Of a DNA stretch of 64,000 nucleotides, positions 1 through 41,818 are shown in pieces (positions within the stretch are counted from its first letter, which is position 1; every line of letters begins with the position of its first letter). The DNA is from a virus. The translations under genes and the position numbers were made by a program. The stretch is taken from UHGV virus genome UHGV-1430452; one strand, given 5' to 3'. The notes beneath the pieces are model-generated. The model ran no database searches. It was not told the origin of the DNA and saw nothing but the letters and a program-made list of their open reading frames with translations.

Positions 1-41
1 TGCAGGAGGGGGTGCATTTTTGCAGAGCCCCTCCCCCGGTC

Positions 42-302
42 TTAGAAAATAAATGGAATATCCTTTTTTACTTTTTTATAAATTCCTAAAGGATTCAACT
101 CAATTATTTCGTCAATCGCTCTTTCAATCTCTTCATCTTCTTCTTTCTGAGACATATCATCTGTAAGAACAGCAATACGTGCCAGATAGCCACATGTGTT
201 ATAACCTTTCTCTTCATCGAATCTTCTCCAAGAAGTGAAGTCATCGATCGGATCGAAAGGATTGTCCATTGTAGTCAACATGACTTTACTTTCTGTCATC
301 AC
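42..302 (-). CDS. hypothetical protein, 86 aa, acidic
   Basis: Uninterrupted ORF. Its start lies 3 nt downstream of the stop of the 1056-aa gene (coupled). No family recognised. Confidence 0.6.
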   Translation of the reverse strand: MMTESKVMLTTMDNPFDPIDDFTSWRRFDEEKGYNTCGYLARIAVLTDDMSQKEEDEEIERAIDEIIELNPLGIYKKVKKDIPFIF

Positions 303-304
303 TC

Positions 305-3300
305 TTACTTCACTCCTTTCAAATACTTAGATACTGTCGATGTAGAAACTCCCATCTTCTTAGCAATCTGTTCAAGTGTATAGTTAGATGCAGCCATTGC
401 TTTAGCTCTACTAACTTGTGCACTGCTTAGACTGTTGGTTAGTCTAGGAGTTGCTCGTTCTCTAAGGTTATCGATGTCTGTTGTGTTAAGGATTCTCTTA
501 AGCTGATTCTCACTAACAGCACCAGCTTGTATAGCTTCCCATTCTTTGTCACTGATCTCTATGTTACGATCTCTTCTAGAGATAGAGCCAACCTCTTGTC
601 TATACTTATTCAACGCCTGTTGGCTAAGCTTTCTCAACGGTTCTCCTTTAAGCTCTTCACCATGTTCTTCAAGGTAAGCCTTCTTCTTAGCTGCTATCTC
701 GGAATTAGCTTTTCGTTGAGCAGTTCTTTCTTTAATCTTATTGAGATCTGACTTATCGACTCTCTCCATTAAAGACTTAACCTCATCTCTATACGCAGCC
801 TTAGCACTTGCTGTTGTTTCGATCTTTCCTGTGTTAGCCATAGCTAATCTAGCTTTGTTACCAAGAGCTTTCATCTCATTAGCGTAGTCCGCATAGATAA
901 GTTCCATAGGATGTCTAGCTTTAGATACTAATTTATAAGCATCATCAGTCTCAGCCATCTTAGTACTTTGCTGCATACGGGTTTTAGTACGATATGTAAT
1001 ATCACCAGCGGCATTAGTATAGGTTACTTTCCCAGTGACGGGGTCTTTTTTCTCAATAGGGTTATACCTTTCGTAAGCTGCCTTATCTTTGGGATCATAT
1101 TCAATCTTCTTGCCATCAGCTGTTCGCACGGTAATAAGACCGGTCTTCTTATCTCGTTTTCTATCGACATAATATAGATCGTCGGCCTTCTTCCAAAGCT
1201 TGGCTCCATCTGGTTTGGTGGGGTCATAATCTTTACTACCTGGGATGTTTATTTTATATGAGCCTTGTCTTTTCTCAACTGAATATTGTCCCTTTGATCT
1301 TGATAAAATGGTAGAAGCTCCACCTGATCTTTCATTTCCGTCATCGTCAATACGAACCTGATACTTCTTTTTAAGTGCAGCAATATTGTTATCTATCTCA
1401 CTTTGTTTGTAATCAAGATGATGTTTCTCAGCATCAATAACAACCATGCTATGCTTAACTGCTCTTGCCAATTCTTTTTCATCAGCTCCAGCTAAAGTCA
1501 TATCAGTAATAAGATTGGATACAACACCCATCTGAGTTCCAGTGTTTTTCATGATGGGATATGCTTTTCCATTACGATAATAACGAACATTACCATCTGC
1601 ATCCTTCTTAGCAACACCACCATATTCAACCTTAGGATCAAATCCTTCAAGATCTTCAAGAGGTCGCTTATTAAGAATTTTTACCTTTCCACCTGGATCA
1701 TTGGTAGGAATACACATAACAGTATCGCCATCAAAGTCTGCACCTGAAAGCTGATCAGCAATCTTATGATTAATGCCGACTGCATCGATACTTTGTTTGC
1801 CAATTATTTTATCTCCCAGTGGATTCTTATTGTTAACTGTTAAGATAGGAATTTCAAATCGTCCGCCATGAGGATAACGAATAAGAGCGAGCTTAGTTCC
1901 ACTCTCGTAGTTTGGAGCATATACTTCATTGTCTTTTAAAGAGTTTATTGGAATAATAACGTGGTACTTCTGTCCAGGTAACGCTGCTGCTTTTAAATGT
2001 ACAGCCGCTGCATCGCAGCTATCTGCAAATTTCTCAAGCATATGTTTCTTAATAGTAGGATTAGTAATAGACATATACTCATCAAACTCAGCAAACTTAT
2101 CTTTCTTAGCAAGATCTAACTGTTTCTTAGCTAGAGTCTGTGACTGTTTAGCCAGGAACTGAGATGGTAATGCGTCCTGCCAATCATCCCAATCTCCTTC
2201 ATCGGATCTCTTATTAATGAGACCTAATTTCTTCTTACCGGTCTTAGGATCGTCATACCAATACTGTCCACCCTTGTCAGCATCTTTTATAAGAGAGCCA
2301 AATGGATTGTCTGGATCATCTTTCTTAATATTTTTAAGAACCGTACTTGTTTTATCGCCTAAAGCTGGAGTACCTTTTTTCTTATTCGTATTAAATATGA
2401 CATCTACTCCATCAGGCATGTTGTCAGAATATACTGCCATACCTTTAAGATAATGAGTTCCATCTACAAGAATACGAACCTGTGAATATCGTGAATCACC
2501 GAGATCAAGATCTTTACATCCTCTGCGAAGTTCAATGATACCGTCCTTATCAATACCCTTAAATCCATCAGCACCGACATCGTCTGCATATCGAACCATT
2601 AAACGTTTTGAATCAAGACTTGCAGGATATGTAAACTTCTTCTGGAATGTATCTCCTCCGTCTATTGATTCATAATCGTTAATTGTCTTTACTCTATCGT
2701 AGTCGTAGATTTCTTTATGTGCCGTTCCTGGTTTACAAAGAACTTTCTGGATGGTCTGTTGTCCTTTTGTATTTATCTGAGGAATACCACCAGTATACAC
2801 AGGATAACCTTCTGCTTTCTGTAAGTAATCAAGAGCAGTATTCAATCGTTCTTTGGATATGCCAAGAGATTTTTCAACACCAGCTGTTACATCGATCATA
2901 CCTTTTTGATCAACATGCTCTCGCAGAAAATCTACAGTCTCCATTGCCTGATGCATACGGTCTTCAGACTTAGGATTAAGAAGAGACCTTACTGTGGACT
3001 CTGGAATACCCATTTCTCTACCGATGGCAGTTGCTCCAAGTCCATCTTCTTTTAAAGATTTAGCTCTAGCTACCTGTTGTAATCTTTCTTCATAACCAGC
3101 CCAACTAATCTGCCTTCTATATTCTGTAGTTGTTAAGTCCATGGATTTAGCTATCGCATTATCTCCGGTCCAGGTCTTACCATTATCATCAGTGTAAGTA
3201 AAACCGGCTTTCTTAAGCTCTTTAACTCTTGCGAGGAAATCGGAACCATGTTGGTATCTATCTTTTCCACTTCCATAAGGATACCTACCGCTGCGGCGAG

Positions 3301-3475
3301 GCATACCATAATGCATAAGTTCATCTTCATTCGCGCTGTCTAAGCGATCAGACCAACCAAAATAAGAAAGGATCTCGTCAGCAACGGTGAACTCTTCATC
3401 GCTGTGCTCAAGATCCTCTTCTCCAAATATAGATTCTACAAGTTCGTTCAACGGAGGTTTCTCTAAGAACTCCAT
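305..3475 (-). CDS. single-chain two-barrel RNA polymerase homolog (YonO/RdRP-like) with N- and C-terminal HTH modules
   Basis: Beta-like DPBB signature YLKGMAVYSDNMPDGVDVIFNTN. Beta-prime-like signature LIRYPHGG...LSGADFDGDTVMCIP (DFDGD encoded ~1723-1740). HTH-like segments LGATAIGREMGIPESTVRSLLNP and YTLEQIAKKMGVSTSTVSKYLKG. Confidence 0.65.
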   Translation of the reverse strand: MEFLEKPPLNELVESIFGEEDLEHSDEEFTVADEILSYFGWSDRLDSANEDELMHYGMPRRSGRYPYGSGKDRYQHGSDFLARVKELKKAGFTYTDDNGKTWTGDNAIAKSMDLTTTEYRRQISWAGYEERLQQVARAKSLKEDGLGATAIGREMGIPESTVRSLLNPKSEDRMHQAMETVDFLREHVDQKGMIDVTAGVEKSLGISKERLNTALDYLQKAEGYPVYTGGIPQINTKGQQTIQKVLCKPGTAHKEIYDYDRVKTINDYESIDGGDTFQKKFTYPASLDSKRLMVRYADDVGADGFKGIDKDGIIELRRGCKDLDLGDSRYSQVRILVDGTHYLKGMAVYSDNMPDGVDVIFNTNKKKGTPALGDKTSTVLKNIKKDDPDNPFGSLIKDADKGGQYWYDDPKTGKKKLGLINKRSDEGDWDDWQDALPSQFLAKQSQTLAKKQLDLAKKDKFAEFDEYMSITNPTIKKHMLEKFADSCDAAAVHLKAAALPGQKYHVIIPINSLKDNEVYAPNYESGTKLALIRYPHGGRFEIPILTVNNKNPLGDKIIGKQSIDAVGINHKIADQLSGADFDGDTVMCIPTNDPGGKVKILNKRPLEDLEGFDPKVEYGGVAKKDADGNVRYYRNGKAYPIMKNTGTQMGVVSNLITDMTLAGADEKELARAVKHSMVVIDAEKHHLDYKQSEIDNNIAALKKKYQVRIDDDGNERSGGASTILSRSKGQYSVEKRQGSYKINIPGSKDYDPTKPDGAKLWKKADDLYYVDRKRDKKTGLITVRTADGKKIEYDPKDKAAYERYNPIEKKDPVTGKVTYTNAAGDITYRTKTRMQQSTKMAETDDAYKLVSKARHPMELIYADYANEMKALGNKARLAMANTGKIETTASAKAAYRDEVKSLMERVDKSDLNKIKERTAQRKANSEIAAKKKAYLEEHGEELKGEPLRKLSQQALNKYRQEVGSISRRDRNIEISDKEWEAIQAGAVSENQLKRILNTTDIDNLRERATPRLTNSLSSAQVSRAKAMAASNYTLEQIAKKMGVSTSTVSKYLKGVK

Positions 3476-3478
3476 TCA

Positions 3479-4105
3479 TCACACCTCCTCGTTCATTCGC
3501 TCCAATGTTTTGCTATGCTGAATAATCGCATCCATTACAGGAAGGATTTCTTCTGCTGTAGGATTGTGGAATATAACTTCGTCGTTCTGGTAGATTCGCA
3601 ATTCAGTTTCAATCTCTCCAGGTTTGACTTTATACTCCAAACAAAAAAGAGCCGCATACACAAGTAGCTGCTCCATCTTCGCCGGAATTATACCGGACTT
3701 ATAATCATGTATTCTTAAGAAATTATTTCGGAATGAAATGGCATCTGCTGTACCGAAACAGTAATCAGAGTAATATAAGATCTGTTCCGGTGTTAACTTA
3801 AACCCAATTGCGTCATTAACGTAGGTCATAAAGTTACTGTAAATACGATCCATGTCTATAACATTTCTTGGGATACCGTCATTAAGTAGATGGGACAGTA
3901 CAGTTAACTTATCACCTTTCTTGAGTTTTAAGTTGTTGGATATTAATGTTTCAGCCAACTCGTGAAGCGATGTTCCCATGCTCTGCGCATAACCGCTAGC
4001 ATATTTCTGATAAAGCTGCTCTTCGGTATATCGCAACCAGTGAGGTTGGCTAGGAGCCAGGAAAGCATGTTTACCTCGCAGATTCAAATGCTTTTCGAAA
4101 ATCAT
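3479..4105 (-). CDS. PD-(D/E)XK superfamily nuclease (RecB/Cas4-like fold)
   Basis: GTADAISF...LRIHDYKSG gives a D...D-x-K nuclease core. It sits beside a second nuclease in the replication/recombination context. Confidence 0.55.
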   Translation of the reverse strand: MIFEKHLNLRGKHAFLAPSQPHWLRYTEEQLYQKYASGYAQSMGTSLHELAETLISNNLKLKKGDKLTVLSHLLNDGIPRNVIDMDRIYSNFMTYVNDAIGFKLTPEQILYYSDYCFGTADAISFRNNFLRIHDYKSGIIPAKMEQLLVYAALFCLEYKVKPGEIETELRIYQNDEVIFHNPTAEEILPVMDAIIQHSKTLERMNEEV

Positions 4106-4119
4106 TTAATGGTTCCTCC

Positions 4120-4410
4120 TTATTTGTTAAATGTTTTTCTGAGATCGTCCAGGACTTGGTCCTTGTTCTCAGGAAATATAAATGCTGAGTGTGACATCTC
4201 ATTCATTTTATCTACATAGTAATCCTGATTTGGCTGATGTTTTGCCGTAGCGCTCTTCTTCACTTCTAATGCGCACCATTTATCTTTGTAGAGAACTAAT
4301 AAGTCCGGAACTCCCTGTAAATATGTTGGATCATTTTTCAGGACCATACATCCTGGGAATTCTTTCTTAAGCTCTTTGATAAGTTTTGCTTGAAATTTGT
4401 TCTCTAACAT
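4120..4410 (-). CDS. VRR-NUC domain nuclease
   Basis: GVPDLLVLYKDKWCALEVKK is the PD...ExK motif typical of small VRR-NUC proteins. The 96-aa size fits. Confidence 0.7.
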   Translation of the reverse strand: MLENKFQAKLIKELKKEFPGCMVLKNDPTYLQGVPDLLVLYKDKWCALEVKKSATAKHQPNQDYYVDKMNEMSHSAFIFPENKDQVLDDLRKTFNK

Positions 4411-4437: not shown

Positions 4438-4511
4438 TGGACCCTCTGGGATTCGAACCCAGGACCGTCCGGTTATGAGCCGGATGCTCTAACCAACTGA
4501 ACTAAAGGTCC
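4438..4511 (-). tRNA. tRNA with CAU anticodon (Met or lysidine-modified Ile2)
   Basis: Reverse complement GGACCTTTAGTTCAGTTGGTTAGAGCATCCGGCTCATAACCGGACGGTCCTGGGTTCGAATCCCAGAGGGTCCA folds as a canonical cloverleaf. 7-bp acceptor, GTTCGAATC T-loop, anticodon loop CTCATAA. Confidence 0.88.
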
Positions 4512-4547
4512 GCCTATTATAAAGAAAAGAGAAAAATAGACTTTTCT

Positions 4548-4577
4548 CTCATAAAAGGGCAAGAAAATTTCGTGAAT
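4548..4577 (-). promoter_or_regulatory. phage promoter-like motif (variant TTCACGAAAATTTTC...CCCTTTTATGAG) upstream of the tRNA
   Basis: Member of the ~35-copy motif family. It is part of a ~60-bp direct repeat with 4678-4740. Confidence 0.55.
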
Positions 4578-4677
4578 AGGGTGTGTACTTTTATATGTAA
4601 ATTTAGATAAGACCGGGAGCCATGAAGGACATCCCGGTACGTTCCAAAAATATAAATAGAAAGAAAATAGACCATCT

Positions 4678-4707
4678 CTCTATAAAAGGGTCAGAAATTT
4701 TCGTGAA
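4678..4707 (-). promoter_or_regulatory. phage promoter-like motif, duplicate of 4548-4577
   Basis: Near-identical repeat copy. It is followed on the minus strand by hairpin ACCGGGA/TCCCGGT (about 4611-4640). Confidence 0.5.
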
Positions 4708-4757
4708 TAGGGTGTGTACTTTTTATATGTAAATATCAATAAATGAGATCGTATGTA

Positions 4758-5195
4758 TTAATCTATAGCTTCAAAGTGTAGACCTTTCGTATTGTTGTAG
4801 AAATCGTAGTTACAGCATTTACTTATTGTGGCTTCGTTCATTCCTATAGCTTTACTGCATTCCCTGATAGATTCATAAACTTCTCCAGTTTCCACAATAC
4901 GAATCTTTTTATTGCATCGCCTCCTTTCCAAATTATCAATTCTATTGTTACGTTTGTTACCATCGATATAACCGACACATGGTTTTCCTGGTTCTTCATC
5001 AAGAAATGCGTCAGCCACTAGTCGACCAACGCGCTTTGTTATTCTTCTGCCGTTCTCCTTGACCTTCACTGTTTCGTAACCCTTGTTATCAAGGCATGGA
5101 GTAAGTATTCTTCCAGTCTTTGAGTTCCTAACTCTTCCTTCGCTGCTTACCTCATATCCTTCAGCAATATTACTATCGATCCATTGTTCTTCCAT
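4758..5195 (-). CDS. NUMOD4/HNH-like homing endonuclease paralog with degenerate HNH motif
   Basis: N-terminal W..I..GYEVSSEGRVRN (NUMOD4). Central VGYIDGNKRNNRIDNLE, where Tyr replaces the first His of the HNH_3 motif. C-terminal ETGEVYESIRECSKAIGMNEATISKC (NUMOD1-like HTH). Confidence 0.7.
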   Translation of the reverse strand: MEEQWIDSNIAEGYEVSSEGRVRNSKTGRILTPCLDNKGYETVKVKENGRRITKRVGRLVADAFLDEEPGKPCVGYIDGNKRNNRIDNLERRRCNKKIRIVETGEVYESIRECSKAIGMNEATISKCCNYDFYNNTKGLHFEAID

Positions 5196-5206
5196 CGATA
5201 ACCTCC

Positions 5207-5713
5207 TTATTCTACTTTCTCAAACGTGTAACCTCCGCAAGTTCTCAATCTTCCTCGTAAATACTGTGACAACATACTTTGACTTATCCCAAGCGTTTTA
5301 GCACATTCGTTCAAAGATTCATATACCTCTCCGTTCTCTTTACATCTAACTTTTATTCGATTACTTCTACCACCACCATATGGTTTCATCAATCCATCTC
5401 GTATGGCGTATTGCACATTTTCTTTTCTTGTACACCATTCAAGATTATCTGCGTGGTTATTTGTTTTATCTCCATCTTTGTGATGAACATCTAGACCTGG
5501 ATAAGGTCCGCCTAGAAATGCTTCGGCCACGAGAATATTAACTCTCTTTTGAAACCCATATCCGCATCTAGATAATGTTACAGTTTTATAACCTTTGCTG
5601 TCAGTTCCTTGTTTTAGAATTCTTCTAGTATCGATATTCCTAACCTTGCCAGTATTACTAACTTCATATTGCGAACCAAAATCATGCACCGCCTCCCATT
5701 CTTCAACTTTCAT
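5207..5713 (-). CDS. HNH homing endonuclease (NUMOD4 + HNH + NUMOD1-like HTH)
   Basis: QYEVSNTGKVRN, then VHHKDGDKTNNHADNLEW (intact HNH), then ENGEVYESLNECAKTLGISQSMLSQYL. Confidence 0.8.
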   Translation of the reverse strand: MKVEEWEAVHDFGSQYEVSNTGKVRNIDTRRILKQGTDSKGYKTVTLSRCGYGFQKRVNILVAEAFLGGPYPGLDVHHKDGDKTNNHADNLEWCTRKENVQYAIRDGLMKPYGGGRSNRIKVRCKENGEVYESLNECAKTLGISQSMLSQYLRGRLRTCGGYTFEKVE

Positions 5714-21524: not shown

Positions 21525-21971
21525 TTAAATATAGTCCAATATGTTTCCATCCACATTGAAGTCTAATAATGCCGTATTCTTATAACCATTGATAAAATCG
21601 AAATTACATTCATTCATTAAACCAAAATCTACGAAATTGTCTCCAATAGGATTCTCCTCGTCATAAACCCAGCCAACAACTGCTCCTGCTTTTGTTCTCG
21701 GAATGCCTAACGTATCGTAGACATCATTCAGAAATAAATGTCCTCTTGATCTCAGCAAAACATTACAATATTTCTGCTGATCTTTCAAAAAGTTCATATT
21801 ATACTCTGGATCTTTAATCCACCCAATACAGCTATCATCGAAAAACCTAGCATATTGACTAAAGTTTTCGGTTTTGTCAACCCTGTTTCCTGGATACTCT
21901 TCTTCTGATTTCAGATTGAATAATTTCTTTAATTCCTCATCATCAATTTCAATAGTTACATTAATCTTCAT
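21525..21971 (-). CDS. paralog-family protein (C-terminal domain shared with 44029..44967)
   Basis: FFDDSCIGWIKDPEYNMNFLKDQQKYCN...LNDVYDTLGIPRTKAGAVVGWVYDEENPIGDNFVDFG closely matches the 44029..44967 C-terminus. Start set at MKINV (AGGAG RBS). Confidence 0.65.
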   Translation of the reverse strand: MKINVTIEIDDEELKKLFNLKSEEEYPGNRVDKTENFSQYARFFDDSCIGWIKDPEYNMNFLKDQQKYCNVLLRSRGHLFLNDVYDTLGIPRTKAGAVVGWVYDEENPIGDNFVDFGLMNECNFDFINGYKNTALLDFNVDGNILDYI

Positions 21972-22032
21972 AATTATTCTCCTTTCAAATATAAACATAT
22001 TGTTTCATTAAAGGAGATGTTTACGACGCGAG

Positions 22033-22149
22033 TTATTTATGAAAGCCGATATCGCCGGCAATAGCAAATAAACCAGCAGCTATAATTAATGCAGGTTCAC
22101 TTGTCGCAAGATACAAAAATATTAATATTCCAGAAATTACCCATCCCAT
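22033..22149 (-). CDS. small membrane peptide, 38 aa
   Basis: Hand-translated MGWVISGILIFLYLATSEPALIIAAGLFAIAGDIGFHK. It overlaps the helicase stop. Confidence 0.4.
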   Translation of the reverse strand: MGWVISGILIFLYLATSEPALIIAAGLFAIAGDIGFHK

Positions 22150-23423
22150 TTACACCACCGCCTTTCATTAAATTTTCGCTTTTCATGCAGAGCTCTGGAT
22201 ATTGCTAGGTCAATACCACTCCTACTTTTTAGATGATAGTAATATAAATCTATGAATGGAGAATTAAGTCTATCGATCCTACCCTTTGCCTGGAGTAATG
22301 TCTTGTATGAATATGTTTGCGAATAAAATACGATACAGTTTGTTTTAATGCAATTGAAACCCTCGGCTCCTGCTGAATAATTTACCAGATAAATCCACTT
22401 CTCGCTTTCTGGTATAGCATCATGCTGGTGTCCGTTATATTCTGCAATAACCACATCTTCTCCATAATATAGATTCTTCAAGATATCCAGTTCGTAGTCG
22501 AATGAATAGAACACAATCATTCTTGGATGTTGTTCAAATATCTCTAATAGTTTTATCTGGCGTGATTCATCTGAATTAACGATTCTACGTAGAACATAGC
22601 AAAGCCCAGAAGCTTGTTGGATAGGTTCTTGTTTAAAAGGATCAAAACGAGTTCTAATAGCTTGCTTGTATTTATGGATGTCGTAAGTAGCCGAAATATC
22701 AATGTCATGAGGTACCGTATGTCTCTCGAAATCCATATCAATAAGAATCCGATCTCTTAAACGAATCAATCTCGTCTCATTACGATAACCTTCAACACTA
22801 GGATACTTTGTCCAACGAGAATATATAATGTGCTCTTGCCTGAATTCCGTTCTATTACGAAAGAATCCATTAGCCACAAATACCGTTTCGTAATCTGACC
22901 AATTATCACCTGGACTAGCTGATAGTATGATCCATTCGTTAAATTTAGCTATCTTTAAAAAAGCTTTACACCATGCGCCTTTACCAGTTAGCTTATCTTC
23001 GTCAAATATAAATACAGCATCTCGAACATCTGCATATTTCTTTATGCATTGCCAACTATCGATAAATATTTTGTTCCCATATCTAGTCTTTTTAGTATCT
23101 GGATCAGGATATAAAAGAAACGGCATCAATTCTTCTTCCCATTCAAGATCATTTTTTTTCTTTGCTGTGCTGATAATGTATAAATCTGGTGGATTAGGTT
23201 TCATTGGTTTGTACTCTTTATTACCTATGTATCCTCCGTTTTTAGAGAAATACCAATACAAAGCAGTTCTAGATTTCCCAGAACCTGTGCCACCGTTAAG
23301 AATGCAACCGCTGAACATACGATCTATAGCCTGCTGTTGATGTGGATAGAGAAAATCCGTTTTGGTTTGAGTTTTGTTGTAAGAAATAGTATGTCGATCT
23401 TTATAGCTCACTTCCAAAATCAC
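22137..23423 (-). CDS. SNF2/DEAD-like superfamily-2 helicase
   Basis: Walker A LNGGTGSGKS, motif II FIFDEDK, motif VI QAKGRIDR. Confidence 0.75.
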   Translation of the reverse strand: MILEVSYKDRHTISYNKTQTKTDFLYPHQQQAIDRMFSGCILNGGTGSGKSRTALYWYFSKNGGYIGNKEYKPMKPNPPDLYIISTAKKKNDLEWEEELMPFLLYPDPDTKKTRYGNKIFIDSWQCIKKYADVRDAVFIFDEDKLTGKGAWCKAFLKIAKFNEWIILSASPGDNWSDYETVFVANGFFRNRTEFRQEHIIYSRWTKYPSVEGYRNETRLIRLRDRILIDMDFERHTVPHDIDISATYDIHKYKQAIRTRFDPFKQEPIQQASGLCYVLRRIVNSDESRQIKLLEIFEQHPRMIVFYSFDYELDILKNLYYGEDVVIAEYNGHQHDAIPESEKWIYLVNYSAGAEGFNCIKTNCIVFYSQTYSYKTLLQAKGRIDRLNSPFIDLYYYHLKSRSGIDLAISRALHEKRKFNERRWCKWDG

Positions 23424-36622: not shown

Positions 36623-37120
36623 TTACTCTTCCGGATGTTCCTCCGCTGCAAATCTGGATGAGAATCTGTCAATATCCTGAGTTACACACATTGACTGCAA
36701 ATATGCTGCACGGAATGGTTTACCGTTAATCTCAGAATCATACGGTCTGATATCAAGATCGACACTTGCAATATCAATTTCGTCGAGCATGGATACTGTT
36801 TCTTCATCAAGTTTGACTCTATTTCTACCAGACTGAAGATATACAATAGGGCCTCTGTCGTTAAATTTGACTTTAACTGGAAGATAGATAAATGGTTCAT
36901 CTCCATCTTCTCTTGGCGGTTTGATCTTTACATTCCATCCTGCTCCAAACTTATTTACATCATTCTGCAAAGCTTCTGCCATTTCTTCGTTAGGGATAAT
37001 CAAAGCGAAGTTACGGTCTCCTTCTTTGTTGAATTTACCGCCTTCTCCTCTGAAGTTTCTGAAAATGATTCTTGCGTCATCGATCTGTAATACTCCTCTT
37101 GGTGCGAATGTTAATTCCAT
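36623..37120 (-). CDS. putative ssDNA-binding protein (gp2.5-like)
   Basis: Beta-rich body with an acidic C-terminal tail (AAEEHPEE). It lies directly downstream of the replicase gene. Call based on context and composition only. Confidence 0.4.
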   Translation of the reverse strand: MELTFAPRGVLQIDDARIIFRNFRGEGGKFNKEGDRNFALIIPNEEMAEALQNDVNKFGAGWNVKIKPPREDGDEPFIYLPVKVKFNDRGPIVYLQSGRNRVKLDEETVSMLDEIDIASVDLDIRPYDSEINGKPFRAAYLQSMCVTQDIDRFSSRFAAEEHPEE

Positions 37121-37310: not shown

Positions 37311-37601
37311 CTATCGTAAAGATTTTGGGACAAGGCTTTTGATAATCTTTTTCTGATGCTCGTCCAGATCGTGATATAGAGTGAAACCCGTTGCCCCATT
37401 ATACTCATCGCCAAACTGTTTGTAGTACATAGATTGTTTCCATAACTCCGGATACTCTTTTTTGTACTTTGCGAGTTCTTTTGCTTTCTTGTCATACTGT
37501 TTATCCGAAATTATATTATTATCTAACTCGTAATAAATATATGAATGAAGTATGATATATCTTTGCAAGTAATCTATGTATTCGAGGGTTGTTAGTTCCA
37601 T
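37311..37601 (-). CDS. stand-alone protein resembling NAD-ligase (LigA) N-terminal domain Ia
   Basis: LHSYIYYELDNNIISDKQYDKKAKELAKYKKEYPELWKQS follows the LigA pattern H.Y.YYV.D.P.ISD.EYD.L..EL..LE...PEL. Confidence 0.4.
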   Translation of the reverse strand: MELTTLEYIDYLQRYIILHSYIYYELDNNIISDKQYDKKAKELAKYKKEYPELWKQSMYYKQFGDEYNGATGFTLYHDLDEHQKKIIKSLVPKSLR

Positions 37602-40600
37602 GGCAGCTCTACATCTTCATCATCGAATGGAATTTCCTCAGGAGATCCTTCCGGTATGTTCATGAAGTCTGGTAAATGAGAATCTCTAAAAGGAGGTTCA
37701 TGCCGATCTGAAGCATCCCAAGGCGGAGTACCAACATATGGATCGTCTGATATGAACCACTCAGCGTCTCCGTATTGACCAATAGTTTCAAGAGCATCAT
37801 CCACAAGCTTTCGATAATATGAACGATCAATATTTTCTTCATTTCCCGGAGACATCATTAACTCGGATTCAAGCCAACGGAAACCAGTTGTTCCTGTAGC
37901 TGCATAATATTTACCGTTCTGTTCTCGCATCAATAGTCCTCCACCCTTTCCAGGCTTAACCGGACAAAATTGCCCAACTTTACCTACGAAATGATAGTCA
38001 TGACCTTCAGCTATTAAATCGTTTAATCTTCGACACTCACTTTCGAAAGTTGTGTCCGATAACTTACCTTTCCTGTACTTATCTTCAAGTTTGGATAGTT
38101 CTTTTTCATACTCGGATACATCTGGAAGTTTTTCGTTCATATCCAAATATAAAGCAGATTTTACTGAGAATGCTTCGCACATATCTTTCAACTCAATTGG
38201 TTCTTTACTGAACAGTGTTTTAAATACATACGGAACTGCAAACTGTTTTCCAGTAGCTGTCCATTCTCCGGCATTCTTTCCATCTTTAAACCTAGCCACG
38301 TACACAGCATCATTTACTAAACAGAATTTTTCAAAGTTAGCCTCTGTTTCAAATGTATATCCGTATTCTTTACCGAATTTGGTTACGAAATCAATAATAT
38401 CAGGAGTAGCATCGGGTATCTTTATGGAATCTGTCTTGATATGACAAACAGTAAATCCTCGTTTCTGAACTTCTCTTTTCAATAATGTCATGAAGAGAGC
38501 TCCTCTTTTGGCAACAATGTTATCCTTATTTCTAGGATCTCTAAATTCATTTACGAAGCCAGCTGATGTCAAACCATAAATGGAATTGATAACAATCTTA
38601 AGTGCCTGCGCTAAATCAGCAGCCTGTTCTTCATTTAAGTATGGTTTCAACGCTCCACCTAATAATTGTCCAGCTGTTTCAAAGTCTTTATGCTTAATTG
38701 CAACACGAGCTTTTACAATATCCTCAAACCGTTTTGTATATTCTGGTCCAAATAGACATTCGAATATAATACTGTGAGGATGCTGAGAAGCAATGTCTCC
38801 ATCCCATACATTACCGTAATGCCCAGGTTCAGAGTAAACCCGACCGCCTTCTCCAATGGCTTCGCCTAAATATGTTGATTTACCAAACTCAAAAGTATAG
38901 CCTTTAAAGAATGGAAGAATGCTATAACCTTCTGGAAGCTTTTCGCCAGGAACGTAAGATCGATATAATGGAAGACCCTCAGAATCAAATACTCTGAAAT
39001 CATAATCATCTCCGAATTTAATTCTATATTCATCATAACGATCTGAGCTAACCGGTTCCGCCAAGTATCTATAGTTGAATACATTCTGCGGTTTTTTATT
39101 ATTTCCAAATATAATTCTTTTAGAAAGAGTATTTGTCGTATCATTAACTGTAACGTTTGTAATATCATGTAAGAGTTTTACAAGATCAACCTGAATCTGT
39201 CTAGCAACAAAGTCTGCTTTTCTTGCATTGAATACAGCTTCCGTCGCAATGACATCATTATCGCAATACTCAGCAACCTTTGCCCATAATTCTTCTGGAA
39301 CTGGTTGATCCCAAGGAAGACCAAGCTCTTGATGATGAATACCCAGTTCAATCTCCCATTTCTTTAAACTCTGTTTCACAGTTGACATATCATATACATC
39401 AATGTAACCAAGATTATATGCCTCACCAAACATGCCATTATCACGGCTTCCCTTTGGAGCATTAATAATTCTTTGAGATAACTTATATATTTCCTCATTT
39501 GTGTATCCCATAAGTCTAGCATAAATGATATGTCTGTCGTATTTACGTCCATTAAAATCAACAAGTTTAAACTTTAGAAGATTTTCTATTTCTGCTGGTG
39601 TAGGATTAATTAATCTAACTACTGTTTTTCCTTCTCCAGCAAACTTATAGTTTACCAAAAATAAATTTGGGAATACCTCACAATCATAGAATACAAGATC
39701 GTCAGTATCACCCTCATTACTTGTCTCTGAAGCCTCTTCACTCTTAAACGCCATCTGATTAACTAACTTCAAACACTCATCAGCCTGGTTACTACTACTC
39801 GCCGCCAAAGCAAATACAGCATTTTTCATATCAGACACATCATATCCAATACCACTCTCATAAGCCTCATCCAAAAGTTTCTTAATCATTTGAATACTTG
39901 GAGCTGTGTTACCCATAATTTCTTTATTCAGATGTTTCTTAAGAACGGATCTCAAATATTTCTCATTCTTAATACCATCAAAGTTAATCACATTTTTCAC
40001 CTCTTTCAACGGAAGACCTGAGCTAATTGTACGAATAACAAGATTGACACACTTAGTAAGTTTTCTTCTAAGAGATGTTTTACCGGTAAATACCTTAATC
40101 TCGATATCCTCATCAAATATACGACTTAATTCACTCACATCACCGTTATAAATATAATGAAGATGAATACCTCCACCACTTTTGCTTAACTCAGCATATG
40201 TTGGAGGCCATTTACTAGCTGCTTCAAGATTCTTCTCGAAACATTTATTACCATTCTCGTCCTTAATATCAAAGTCAATAACTACATGATTTTCAGGGAC
40301 CTTGACGTAATGAAGTTTTGATGTGTCAAGTTCTGATAGGGTAGTTGAAACTTCATCCCATGGCTTCGTCGGAGTTTCTTTTGAAGTAGCATATTGAGCT
40401 GGACAATCAGAACATTCTTTATCAAAAATAGACTCCTGTTCTTCAAATATAAGCCAGCTCTCAGTTTTCTCATCTCCAATAGGTTTCTCTGCTTTAACCT
40501 TTTTCTTCCCACCAATAGAGTCTTCGAAAATATCAGTCTTAAAACCGTCGTAATAACTCAGCAGCTTACTTCCATCTTCTTTCTCCACCTTCTCATCAAA

Positions 40601-41818
40601 TTCCAAAAAATAGTTTCTCAACTCGTCTTTGAATTTTGTCTTAGAAAATGGATACGGCACTTTTGCTTCCTCACAGTAGTTTTTATACATCTCCCATGCT
40701 GCTTTTAGCGTAGTACCATCTTCTTTCTTGAAGACACTGAATGAATCACATACGAAGTTATAAAAGTCATTAGAAGCCATAAGCATGTCCTTCGGAGCGT
40801 AAGTATCGTAATACTCTGGATCTTCTTTAAAGACTTGTAAACAATGATATGCGATTGCTCCCAACTCAAAATCAACCTGTTTGGTCAATCTACGATATTC
40901 TCGAATCGGTATCTTGTTTCCAGTAGGACGAACGTCAATCAAACGCCTTAGTAAACCAGACTTAGCATCAGTGATCTTAACAGGTGTGTTTGTACCCATA
41001 AATAAAAAACATTTGAATCTTGTTTCATATTGTCCTTTAAATTTTTCATTCATGGTCATTATCTCGTGTGAAATCACCGAGTTTAAGCGCGTATTATCTT
41101 CGATTTTTGATAAATCACCATCATGTTGTATCGCTACAAGAGGGTTATTCTTAAACGGTTCCAGAGCGAAAACATTATTCGGATTACCCAAAGCTTTTGC
41201 GTCAAAAGAACAACAATATCCTTCAAATAATTTCTCGATAATATTTATGATAGTTGATTTACCAGTACCACCAGCTCCGTAAAGCACCAGGAACTTTTGA
41301 AGTATTTTTGATTCCCCAGATACAACGGAGCCGATAGCCCATTCTATTTTACGTCGTTCTTCTTCGGAATATAGAGTACCGATGAGTTTATCCCATGCAG
41401 AAATATCGCCAGGTTCGAGAGGATACGGGAGTCTCTTGCTTGCGAAATTCTCTCTGCTTAATTCTGTGTTTGAAAATATAAGTTCATCATCGAGTACAGC
41501 AAAGTTATCACGCATCTGTTTCTGACAATATTTATGGAACTTATCGATTGAGCCACTGTCAGCATCCCACATATACTTAATTACAGGAGTACCTTCAAGA
41601 CGTCCTTCATTTTCAGCGACATATCTATCAAGTTCTCTATCTACAAGACGGGTTACATCGTCTTCATCTGTACTCCACATCTTTCGATCTTCATCCCAGA
41701 TAGCGTAAAAGTCCCTACCTCGAATCATGAGATCTTTAGATTTCAACATTTTGAACTTAGGAGAAACATCAACACTGCTTTTATTCGTCTTCGTTGATAC
41801 TGTCATGAAGTCCAACAT
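37592..41818 (-). CDS. fused SF3 helicase / AEP primase-polymerase / family-B DNA polymerase
   Basis: Walker A YGAGGTGKST. AEP motifs VVIDFDIKD and SGGGIHLHY. PolB ExoI FYDCEVF, ExoII YCDNDV, motif A DGDIASQHPHS, motif B KIVINSIYG, motif C HIKTDSI. Confidence 0.8.
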   Translation of the reverse strand: MLDFMTVSTKTNKSSVDVSPKFKMLKSKDLMIRGRDFYAIWDEDRKMWSTDEDDVTRLVDRELDRYVAENEGRLEGTPVIKYMWDADSGSIDKFHKYCQKQMRDNFAVLDDELIFSNTELSRENFASKRLPYPLEPGDISAWDKLIGTLYSEEERRKIEWAIGSVVSGESKILQKFLVLYGAGGTGKSTIINIIEKLFEGYCCSFDAKALGNPNNVFALEPFKNNPLVAIQHDGDLSKIEDNTRLNSVISHEIMTMNEKFKGQYETRFKCFLFMGTNTPVKITDAKSGLLRRLIDVRPTGNKIPIREYRRLTKQVDFELGAIAYHCLQVFKEDPEYYDTYAPKDMLMASNDFYNFVCDSFSVFKKEDGTTLKAAWEMYKNYCEEAKVPYPFSKTKFKDELRNYFLEFDEKVEKEDGSKLLSYYDGFKTDIFEDSIGGKKKVKAEKPIGDEKTESWLIFEEQESIFDKECSDCPAQYATSKETPTKPWDEVSTTLSELDTSKLHYVKVPENHVVIDFDIKDENGNKCFEKNLEAASKWPPTYAELSKSGGGIHLHYIYNGDVSELSRIFDEDIEIKVFTGKTSLRRKLTKCVNLVIRTISSGLPLKEVKNVINFDGIKNEKYLRSVLKKHLNKEIMGNTAPSIQMIKKLLDEAYESGIGYDVSDMKNAVFALAASSSNQADECLKLVNQMAFKSEEASETSNEGDTDDLVFYDCEVFPNLFLVNYKFAGEGKTVVRLINPTPAEIENLLKFKLVDFNGRKYDRHIIYARLMGYTNEEIYKLSQRIINAPKGSRDNGMFGEAYNLGYIDVYDMSTVKQSLKKWEIELGIHHQELGLPWDQPVPEELWAKVAEYCDNDVIATEAVFNARKADFVARQIQVDLVKLLHDITNVTVNDTTNTLSKRIIFGNNKKPQNVFNYRYLAEPVSSDRYDEYRIKFGDDYDFRVFDSEGLPLYRSYVPGEKLPEGYSILPFFKGYTFEFGKSTYLGEAIGEGGRVYSEPGHYGNVWDGDIASQHPHSIIFECLFGPEYTKRFEDIVKARVAIKHKDFETAGQLLGGALKPYLNEEQAADLAQALKIVINSIYGLTSAGFVNEFRDPRNKDNIVAKRGALFMTLLKREVQKRGFTVCHIKTDSIKIPDATPDIIDFVTKFGKEYGYTFETEANFEKFCLVNDAVYVARFKDGKNAGEWTATGKQFAVPYVFKTLFSKEPIELKDMCEAFSVKSALYLDMNEKLPDVSEYEKELSKLEDKYRKGKLSDTTFESECRRLNDLIAEGHDYHFVGKVGQFCPVKPGKGGGLLMREQNGKYYAATGTTGFRWLESELMMSPGNEENIDRSYYRKLVDDALETIGQYGDAEWFISDDPYVGTPPWDASDRHEPPFRDSHLPDFMNIPEGSPEEIPFDDEDVELPWN

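Follow-up and report, generated by a model that had tools for sequence, protein, structure and literature searches.

The 64,000-nucleotide (nt) stretch of the virus genome UHGV-1430452 analysed here, called the window in the following, carries close to its first letter the gene of a large polymerase-like protein. A sequence-only reading of this DNA had proposed that a single 1056-residue chain at 305-3475 unites both double-psi beta-barrel (DPBB) signatures of cellular RNA polymerases (RNAPs) with helix-turn-helix (HTH) segments of its own. The chain and its motifs are present as described: a peptide lookup in the translation located every quoted peptide where it had been placed, and the gene lies on the minus strand, which that reading had left unsaid. 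The G+C content of the window is ~33-41%, and from 55 kb down to position 1 nearly every gene is on the minus strand. Conservation is given for a family alignment of 61 sequences, which comprises the protein and 60 representatives at 42-60% identity. The gene and the parts of its product are as follows.

305-3475, minus strand: polymerase-like open reading frame with an ATG start, 1056 amino acids (aa), single-chain two-barrel protein, member of PHROG 4291.
3248-3319, minus strand: N-terminal motif LMHYGMPRRSGRYPYGSGKDRYQH, residues 53-76, in a disordered segment, present in 61/61 relatives.
3110-3238, minus strand: HTH-like module A, residues ~80-122 with helices 80-90 and 104-111, present in 61/61 relatives.
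2966-3073, minus strand: HTH module B (the N-terminal HTH of the sequence-only reading), residues ~135-170 with helices 148-155 and 159-165, present in 61/61 relatives.
2141-2809, minus strand: first (beta-like) DPBB region, residues ~223-445, which holds YLKGMAVYSDNMPDGVDVIFNTN.
1556-1978, minus strand: second (beta-prime-like) DPBB, residues ~500-640, with RYP, DFDGD and invariant residues.
1361-1543, minus strand: helical segment after the second barrel, residues 645-705, with helices 645-662 and 666-685.
314-424, minus strand: HTH module C (the C-terminal HTH of the sequence-only reading), residues 1018-1054, present in 61/61 relatives.

The beta-like peptide YLKGMAVYSDNMPDGVDVIFNTN corresponds to residues 342-364 (nt 2384-2452), LIRYPHGG to residues 531-538 (nt 1862-1885, with RYP at nt 1871-1879), and DFDGD, the sole DxDxD within the protein, to residues 580-584 (nt 1724-1738). 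The peptides quoted for the N-terminal and C-terminal HTHs are residues 146-168 (nt 2972-3040) and 1032-1054 (nt 314-382). Both barrels contain residues that are invariant in 61/61 sequences, namely D322, Q332, R334, K344, G345, G356, and D358 in the first and R533, P535, S577, G578, A579, D580, D582, G583, and D584 in the second. R533, P535, D580, D582, G583, and D584 together with D322, Q332, R334, K344, G345, and D358 are identical across five phages from two phyla (Lachnospiraceae-type, Arthrobacter, Streptomyces, and Lactococcus phages). Since these residues do not vary among the 61 aligned sequences, the quoted motifs are not due to chance. Judged by its sequence, DFDGD is the predicted metal-binding loop of the beta-prime-like barrel, preceded by the invariant R-x-P that the superfamily calls for; R-x-P and the first Asp are 47 residues apart here and 45 in QDE-1 (R962 to D1007; PMC2919709). 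The beta-like barrel of QDE-1 holds an invariant Asp and two basic residues, D709, R738, and K743 (PMC2919709). In the first barrel of the present protein, D322 or D358, R334, and K344 are candidates for the catalytic Asp and the basic residues, chosen by invariance and not by residue-level equivalence to QDE-1.

The sequence-only reading had named structure prediction and comparison as its check, and the AlphaFold and Foldseek results revealed a DPBB polymerase fold that matches QDE-1 and RDR2 best. The AlphaFold2 model had a mean predicted local distance difference test score (pLDDT) of 84.4 and a predicted template-modelling score (pTM) of 0.74, and disorder was limited to residues 1-78. 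The top 13 Foldseek matches in the PDB were QDE-1 and plant RDR2 (E 1.7e-7 to 2.8e-3, probability 1.00), followed by Rpb1 of RNA polymerase II (Pol II) and the vaccinia RNAP. The values in the structure-match table were 11.2 for QDE-1 (439 residues aligned), 10.5 for the non-virion RNAP gp62 of Thermus phage P74-26, and 10.3 for RDR2; the largest subunits of the Pol I, Mycobacterium tuberculosis, vaccinia, African swine fever virus (ASFV), and AR9 RNAPs gave about 9, isolated DPBB domains 8.6-8.8, PolD DP2 7.4, P23-45 gp96 7.2, and crAss phi14:2 gp66 7.1. The matches to QDE-1, RDR2, and phage and cellular RNAP subunits therefore confirm the two-barrel polymerase fold. In the model, two predicted DPBB domains form one active site, which confirms placement of the protein in the two-barrel polymerase superfamily, and the architecture is of the type of RNA-dependent RNA polymerases (RdRPs), as had been proposed, with the beta-like barrel first and the beta-prime-like barrel behind it as in QDE-1. 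The helical segment that follows (pLDDT >90), in which D658, D681, K684, and H685 are invariant in the 61-sequence alignment, would by its position occupy the place of the bridge helix of other two-barrel RNAPs (compared with PMC10770324).

Sequence searches recovered little of this fold. A protein-sequence search against PDB chains gave no match, a family-profile search against PDB chains gave HTH matches and one non-significant AR9 beta-prime match at the DFDGD region but nothing else, and Pfam hmmscan of the protein returned HTH families only, with no RdRP or RNAP family. The matches in the viral fold library BFVD were metagenomic proteins named 'RNA-dependent RNA polymerase', and YonO was not among the top 50 listed.

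Two HTH segments, one near each end of the chain, had been claimed by the sequence-only reading. Both are real and kept throughout the family, but their number is three: the model and the alignment revealed three tri-helical HTH-like modules of one pattern (a helix ending in G, 'EIAxxxG', 'SxSTVxxxL') in 61/61 relatives. Module A, which carries an insertion in this phage, keeps the pattern xxLxxxG...IAKxxGxSxxxxR in 61/61 sequences; no Pfam match at E<=0.01 was recorded for it, and it is assigned from pattern and model. The Pfam matches of module B are weak (HTH_IclR at 144-167 and CENP-B_N at 149-169). Module C scores above the curated Pfam cut-offs of HTH_23 (31.7 bits, E=1.2e-7) and HTH_38 (29.2 bits, 7.6e-7) and above that of Sigma70_r4 (28.9 bits, 8.1e-7, residues 1031-1050). 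Because HTH_23, HTH_38, and Sigma70_r4 match alike, module C is a generic sigma-4-like HTH and no evidence of a sigma factor. The identity of the protein as a sigma-70 factor was rejected, as only the region-4-like HTH scores and region 2 is without a Pfam match. A conserved helical segment, ITDKEWEAIQAGAIS, at residues 974-1008 is also present in 61/61 aligned relatives.

The N-terminal motif has the form L-x-H-Y-G...SGRYPWGSG, in which G57, S62, G63, R64, G68, and G70 are invariant, and the pLDDT is <50 over residues 40-78. It resembles DUF7211 (PF23847), ELYHYGVKGMKWGVRR, which heads a conserved protein encoded directly upstream of the large terminase in the same phages; the polymerase itself gave no score against the DUF7211 Pfam model. 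This likeness may reflect a shared targeting or interaction signal.

The protein matches PHROG 4291 ('RNA-dependent RNA polymerase') over its full length (E=0, 1140 bits, with residues 46-1054 aligned to positions 5-907 of the 909-position profile). Relatives in this family are the 'putative RNA polymerase' of FP_oengus, Mudcat gp94, proteins of ReqiPepy6 and ReqiPoco6 (Rhodococcus), Scap1 gp55, and CHPC971 gp72. Relatives at ~36-47% identity were found by tblastn in 250 deposited phage genomes, the host genera of which include 95 Arthrobacter, 55 Gordonia, 54 Streptomyces, 13 Lactococcus, 4 Rhodococcus, and 2 Faecalibacterium. A HMMER search of 1.84 billion representative proteins gave 857 clusters (50% identity) at E<1e-30; the best 150 matches listed are mostly 900-1050 aa long. 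The closest proteins are metagenomic, with up to 92% identity, and one cluster at 79% occurs in Blautia genomes. Identity is 38-46% to homologues from isolated phages and 80% to MT835495 (79% by tblastn).

The family was already described by Koert et al. (bioRxiv 10.1101/842583, 2021 preprint) as the signature gene of a phage supercluster that comprises Arthrobacter, Gordonia, Rhodococcus, Microbacterium, and Streptomyces phages, the Lactococcus 1706-like phages, and Faecalibacterium phage FP_oengus. In that study, a family alignment gave an HHpred match to the Pfam RdRP family with 95.7% probability over 286 columns, the DxDGD motif and HTH domains at both ends of the protein were described, and it was concluded that the protein 'could potentially have RNA polymerase activity'; promoters are not mentioned (10.1101/842583). 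The relatives are labelled in GenBank either 'helix-turn-helix DNA-binding domain protein' (many SEA-PHAGES records) or 'RNA-dependent RNA polymerase'. The sequence-only reading had stated that no non-canonical RNAP with HTHs in cis was described. This statement is incorrect because Koert et al. had described the family and its architecture in silico, and PHROG and GenBank annotate a polymerase. The protein is thus a new member of an already annotated family described in silico, and its novelty is modest. In the literature searched, neither promoter sequences nor virion proteomics are described for this polymerase family.

The window also contains a promoter-like motif of ~33 nt with the consensus tTCGCGAaaawaACA-N5-CTwTTATGArA, composed of CGCG, an A-rich stretch, ACA, N5, CTwTTATG, and a purine run. 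The exact core TTCGCGAA occurs 8 times in the window against 0.89 expected. A position weight matrix (PWM) was built from the window sites and used with a cut-off of >10 bits. With 0.37 sites expected for the two strands combined, it found 35, every one of them on the minus (coding) strand. The sites and the operon of the polymerase gene are as follows.

4547-55011, minus strand: 35 motif copies found with the PWM, with 5' ends at 55011, 54482, 54209, 53553, 53069, 52603, 52005, 51763, 51570, 51257, 51031, 50678, 50248, 49144, 48331, 48065, 47041, 37308, 36042, 33982, 27789, 24177, 22035, 21463, 21012, 18230, 17449, 10581, 10102, 9904, 7091, 6477, 5951, 4710, and 4579.
4678-4710, minus strand: second, weaker motif copy of the operon, 21.1 bits.
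4547-4579, minus strand: motif before the operon of tRNA-Met, endonuclease, exonuclease, polymerase, and 86-aa protein, 30.6 bits.
4438-4511, minus strand: tRNA-Met (ARAGORN), which opens the polymerase operon directly behind the motif site.
4120-4410, minus strand: endonuclease (phrog_93).
3479-4105, minus strand: PD-(D/E)xK-type (RecB-like) exonuclease (phrog_3953).
42-302, minus strand: 86-aa protein (phrog_4303, E=1.6e-32), always the next gene after the polymerase.

A second tRNA gene at 47958-48031 on the minus strand, for which ARAGORN gave no anticodon or amino acid, likewise lies directly behind a motif site. Two neighbouring homing-endonuclease-like open reading frames (4758-5195 and 5207-5713, minus strand), located shortly before the polymerase operon, were matched by tblastn to annotated HNH endonucleases of Mudcat and Scap1; in CHPC971 the match falls in an intergenic stretch without annotation. 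The order endonuclease, exonuclease, polymerase, and 86-aa gene is kept in CHPC971, Mudcat, and Scap1, at the right end of the linear genome, and this conserved neighbourhood agrees with Koert et al. (10.1101/842583).

Terminator-like hairpins with T-runs were also in excess on the minus strand at 47500-55000 (20 against 5.1 expected), directly upstream of many motif sites, for example at 53103-53069 before the site at 53069 and at 51060-51043 before the site at 51031. Since hairpins precede motif sites on the same strand, the region is a chain of terminator-promoter units. In a logo of 171 distinct sites, the CGCG (84-96%) and ACA (C 100%) cores are almost invariant; the logo further contains an A-rich tract, the box C-T-[T 52% / A 33% / G 12%]-T-T-A-T-G, and purines after the box. 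The spacer from CGCG to the box is 14 nt. A sigma-70 promoter, which has hexamers 16-18 nt apart, A(-11), and T(-7), was rejected as an identity of the motif on account of the 14-nt spacer, the A at only 33%, and the immediate purine run. No enrichment was seen for matches of the sigma-70 type (21 with 22.4 expected, and 34 with 32.5 expected). The 35 copies and the geometry thus bear out the view of the sequence-only reading that an abundant motif other than a sigma-70 promoter exists in this genome.

The motif is inherited together with the polymerase gene. The PWM derived from the window found 7 sites of 14-29 bits in Mudcat, where 0.2 were expected; all are on the coding strand, and one precedes the endonuclease-exonuclease-polymerase operon (upstream of gene 92). 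In Scap1 (61% G+C) it found 2 sites, where 0.07 were expected. In CHPC971, a variant of identical geometry, TTTTACA-N5-CTATAGTAGAAAG (also written TTTTACA-N5-CTATAGTAGA), occurs at 6 sites by pattern scan, and further copies are found in intergenic sequences; this Lactococcus variant was not revealed by 8-mer enrichment but by reading of the intergenic sequences. We then examined 80 IMG/VR loci (1.19 Mb in total) that encode relatives at 48-79% identity. The motif was found 193 times on the gene strand and 7 times on the opposite strand. All of the 193 same-strand hits fell within the 593 kb upstream of the polymerase gene, and none within the gene (225 kb) or downstream of it (374 kb). A site 777-1297 nt upstream of the polymerase gene, before the operon, was present in 71/80 loci. 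The motif occurred in 73/80 loci, and the 7 loci without any hit have <=968 nt of upstream sequence. MT835495, a 69.8-kb contig, has only two sites, both before the polymerase operon, and 0 in the 64 kb downstream, structural genes included. A 30-kb SPbeta control gave no PWM hit. Literature searches for the motif sequences themselves returned nothing relevant; a preprint on cluster AU phages reports a 32-bp intergenic repeat, the sequence of which is absent from that text, and reads it as a recombination boundary.

The end of the window adjacent to the operon holds one more conserved element.

1-41, minus strand: genome-end element, made of a G-run, a 14-16-nt loop, CCCCCTCC, and then TGCA(TCGCG); the window sequence is GACCGGGGGAGGGGCTCTGCAAAAATGCACCCCCTCCTGCA.

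The element continues with CCCCCTCC and then TGCATCGCG, adjoining cos. It lies ~250-600 nt after the polymerase gene in 36/47 metagenomic loci, and the genomes of Mudcat, Scap1, and CHPC971 have it at their extreme right end; the comparison also took in MT835495. Many metagenomic contigs stop within a few bases of the element. Because the isolate genomes and many contigs end there, the element marks the physical genome end, and because they end exactly at it, the window starts at the right end of the phage. The loop reproduces the upstream promoter half, as in TCGCGAAAACCACA. Its half-site score had a median of 5.3 bits against -10.9 in control windows, and exceeded 6 bits in 47% of the loops against 0.1% of the controls; the Scap1 loop begins TCTCGCAA, like Scap1's own promoters. 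Since the upstream half is also placed at the DNA end without the melting box, it behaves as a separate binding module. The half-site could serve to anchor the polymerase, loading it on the DNA end or delivering it together with that end, and could in this way explain how transcription starts. Together, the half-site and the N-terminal motif are compatible with a link of the polymerase to the packaged DNA end or the capsid.

The remaining genes that bear on the interpretation are as follows.

37592-41818, minus strand: primase-like/DNA polymerase fusion, 1408 aa, with residues ~119-428 primase-like (primase PHROGs) and the rest phrog_4210.
36623-37120, minus strand: single-stranded DNA (ssDNA)-binding/annealing protein.
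22137-23423, minus strand: helicase.
55618-55902, minus strand: divergent Cro-like gene region with a 72-aa Cro-like HTH protein.
56053-56649, plus strand: repressor-like double-HTH protein.
56726-58312, plus strand: serine integrase.

The 1408-aa fusion is found in all relatives at 39-46% identity; since the phage has this fusion, a primase role of the two-barrel protein was set aside. Because a serine integrase and a repressor-like protein are encoded, the phage looks temperate. No annotated integrase or repressor was found in Scap1, nor in the parts of Mudcat and CHPC971 that were covered (positions 1-50,000 and the final 9 kb), although one Mudcat gene bears the annotation of a recombination directionality factor. 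The only good host-type (sigma-70-type) promoter, at 55902-55873, is located in the lysogeny switch. The first early operon was considered as the source of a sigma-like factor and yielded none: the 139-aa protein at 55057-55476 belongs to phrog_11237 without a Pfam match, the 72-aa protein is a Cro-like HTH protein, and neither has a detectable homologue in Mudcat, Scap1, and CHPC971. A 522-aa protein at 25967-27535 on the minus strand contains DUF2828 and DUF7788 with a weak vWA match and is named 'RNA-binding protein' in PHROG (phrog_850).

Compared with the isolates of PHROG 4291, the present phage shares the HTH modules at both ends, DxDGD, and the order of endonuclease, exonuclease, polymerase, 86-aa gene, and genome end. 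It differs in that it looks temperate, in that its relatives are on 90-99 kb contigs whereas the isolates have 43-78 kb, and in the number of motif copies, which is 35 here and 2-8 in the isolates. Relative to theirs, the protein itself is longer by 27-30 residues at the N-terminus and carries insertions in HTH-A (11 residues) and in the beta-rich domain.

The sequence-only reading had also likened the protein to SPbeta YonO. The likeness holds for the two-barrel single chain encoded by a phage, but not for membership in the YonO family by sequence. With hhalign, the family profile against the single YonO sequence gave 0.2% probability and nothing relevant, and against a 26-sequence YonO profile only 83 columns aligned (E=0.028, probability 1.8%). 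The sole region that aligned was RxPH...DxDGD, which on the YonO side is RSPH...DNDGD at residues 492-539. In SPbeta, yonO closely precedes the late structural operon and has an exonuclease gene nearby. At the C-terminal position occupied by an HTH in the present protein, YonO relatives carry an invariant cluster of four cysteines (C799, C802, C816, C819), presumably a zinc ribbon; their records list no Pfam HTH families. The cysteine cluster and the C-terminal HTH may be alternative nucleic-acid-binding appendages on the same core. YonO is a DNA-dependent RNAP that transcribes the SPbeta late genes from a single promoter of unknown sequence (Forrest et al. 2017, PMC5467207), in contrast to the multi-copy motif over the early region here.

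QDE-1 and RDR2 share the barrel order and a similar spacing from R-x-P to Asp, whereas identity to them is 11-14%, the global template-modelling score (TM-score) is only ~0.25, and HTH modules are not described for them. The other phage enzymes compared, Thermus P23-45 gp64 and P74-26 gp62, P23-45 gp96, and crAss-like phi14:2 gp66, have no detectable sequence similarity to this protein. The P23-45 enzymes are each tied to their own conserved promoter motif, which follows the polymerase across relatives, and these promoters were proposed partly because polymerase-bearing relatives keep the motif and polymerase-less ones lack it (PMC10770324); the term 'helix-turn-helix' is absent from the main text of that paper. 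P23-45 gp96 and phi14:2 gp66 are virion proteins.

The layout of the motif is also like that of T7-type promoters, which are contiguous over ~25-30 bp: an element recognised as duplex lies upstream, and an AT-rich box follows just ahead of a start site rich in purines. The layout of the T7 promoter CACTATAGGGAGA is similar to that of CTATAGTGAGA in Scap1 and CTATAGTAGA in CHPC971. The protein fold is unrelated and the analogy a functional one only; the resemblance in sequence is probably convergent or coincidental.

On balance, we lean with restrained confidence towards a model in which the polymerase reads the motif as a DNA-dependent, promoter-specific transcriptase. The HTH modules would bind the upstream half (CGCG, A-rich tract, ACA) of a ~30-bp phage promoter, the AT-rich CTwTTAT box would melt, and RNA synthesis would start in the purine run right after the box. 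As a result, the ~55-kb early/replication region would be transcribed as ~35 terminator-bounded units, the operon of the polymerase included. There is good circumstantial evidence for the link between polymerase and motif, with strong comparative support that falls short of proof. A conserved reader encoded by the phages themselves is to be expected, since phages of two phyla have retained one and the same upstream element. The four genomes have in common the two-barrel polymerase, DUF6353 paralogues, two proteins of no known function, the nucleases, the helicase, the DNA polymerase, the 86-aa protein, and the ssDNA-binding protein, and of these the two-barrel polymerase alone contains recognised DNA-binding modules. 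The polymerase would thus be the best candidate for the motif reader. In the window, DUF6353/phrog_2152 is represented by three full copies and one partial copy (44029-44967, 47042-47869, 49330-50106, and 21525-21998, minus strand), and the family is kept in all related phages of both phyla. More tentatively, and as a possibility in which our doubts slightly prevail, the protein may be a self-sufficient two-barrel RNAP in which three HTHs in cis replace sigma, acting on a bipartite ~30-bp promoter in phages of Actinomycetota and Bacillota and extended by a loading function at the genome end. The promoter link and the genome-end element are undescribed in the literature searched.

Several points weigh against the model of a promoter-reading polymerase. 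Neither biochemistry nor transcript data were found in the searchable literature for any PHROG 4291 member. No hmmscan match to the RdRP family PF05183 was obtained at E<=1; since hmmscan fails while the HHpred search of Koert et al. matches, the relation to PF05183 is remote and at the profile level only. Counterparts of D709, R738, and K743 of QDE-1 could not be assigned in the first barrel. YonO, the only studied relative from a bacterial phage, serves late genes, which by analogy would favour such a role here. The box of the Mudcat sites is a perfect TATAAT, and such sites could be used by host sigma-A. DUF6353 paralogues and the 202-aa, 184-aa, and 86-aa proteins could be the true readers or factors of the host RNAP. 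Finally, the polymerase operon and the first unit beside the lysogeny switch (55011) carry the same motif, and the units are preceded by terminators. Because the operon sits behind the motif, a strictly polymerase-dependent motif leaves no obvious source of the first enzyme, especially on prophage induction. Candidates for this source, by analogy, would be delivery in the virion, for which crAss and P23-45 provide precedents, weak use of the sites by host RNAP, or read-through from a host-type promoter.

The last difficulty does not arise if the protein is an active RNAP which, as YonO does, transcribes the late genes (structural and lysis functions, starting just beyond the genome end) from another promoter while host RNAP, with or without a phage factor, reads the motif. 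Host RNAP would then express the early units including the polymerase operon. YonO transcribes only the SPbeta late operon (PMC5467207), just upstream of which and near an exonuclease gene yonO is located, and likewise a single gene separates the present polymerase gene from the genome end and the structural module. Since the motif is absent from the late region, the late genes need another promoter, and the perfect TATAAT of the Mudcat sites would suit host RNAP. However, a host RNAP reading the motif fits the promoter anatomy and the conservation across phyla poorly: the 14-nt spacing, the variable second base of the box (A 33%), and the purine run misfit sigma-70, and the upstream element, retained by phages of both Actinomycetota and Bacillota, requires a reader that the phages themselves encode and conserve rather than a host sigma. 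Moreover, inspection of four genomes by eye showed no second conserved motif where the late region begins. We therefore regard a late-gene role as unlikely, although it deserves serious consideration.

The copy of the upstream half-motif in the hairpin loop at the genome end has suggested two further roles. The protein may be a replication or recombination enzyme, held on specific DNA by its HTHs, whose RNA serves as primers, in origin R-loops, or at the genome end; the phage, however, already encodes the 1408-aa primase-like/DNA polymerase fusion, and 35 strand-specific, gene-proximal, terminator-preceded sites resemble promoters and not origins, so that such a role appears improbable. Alternatively, the polymerase fold may be inactive and retained as a DNA-binding regulator or a packaging protein of the genome end. 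That the half-site adjoins the genome end, that many SEA-PHAGES records say 'helix-turn-helix DNA-binding domain protein' only, and that the small terminase subunit is unannotated in the relatives would all agree with this. It is nevertheless very improbable in our judgement, as metal-binding Asp residues and RxP that are invariant in 61 sequences, and in phages of two phyla, are the pattern expected of an active enzyme. Least credible is an RdRP in the literal sense, which copies or amplifies RNA, for example against host defence or in regulating phage transcripts. The nearest solved structures, QDE-1 and RDR2, are RdRPs of RNA silencing, the PHROG and GenBank annotation reads 'RNA-dependent RNA polymerase', and QDE-1 accepts RNA and DNA templates (PMC9508822). 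Yet the annotation derives from a Pfam name and not from a test, YonO as the one tested relative from a bacterial phage is DNA-dependent, and three HTH modules of the type that binds double-stranded DNA, together with a co-inherited DNA motif, point to DNA templates.

Two-barrel RNAPs perform all cellular transcription, and the cellular ones all need separate initiation factors. The single-chain relatives studied so far are few (YonO, crAss gp66, two Thermus phage enzymes, and QDE-1), and how they find promoters is largely a blank. The present family is well suited to this question, with 857 clusters, 250 phages, and easily grown hosts such as Arthrobacter, Gordonia, Streptomyces, and Lactococcus, and it pairs candidate DNA-reading domains in cis with a sharply defined, co-inherited motif and a half-site at the genome end. 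Since the family is tractable and its candidate promoter is defined, sigma-independent promoter recognition by a minimal two-barrel RNAP is directly testable. A tested function could thereby take the place of the labels 'RNA-dependent RNA polymerase' and 'HTH DNA-binding protein' that hundreds of phage genomes now carry.

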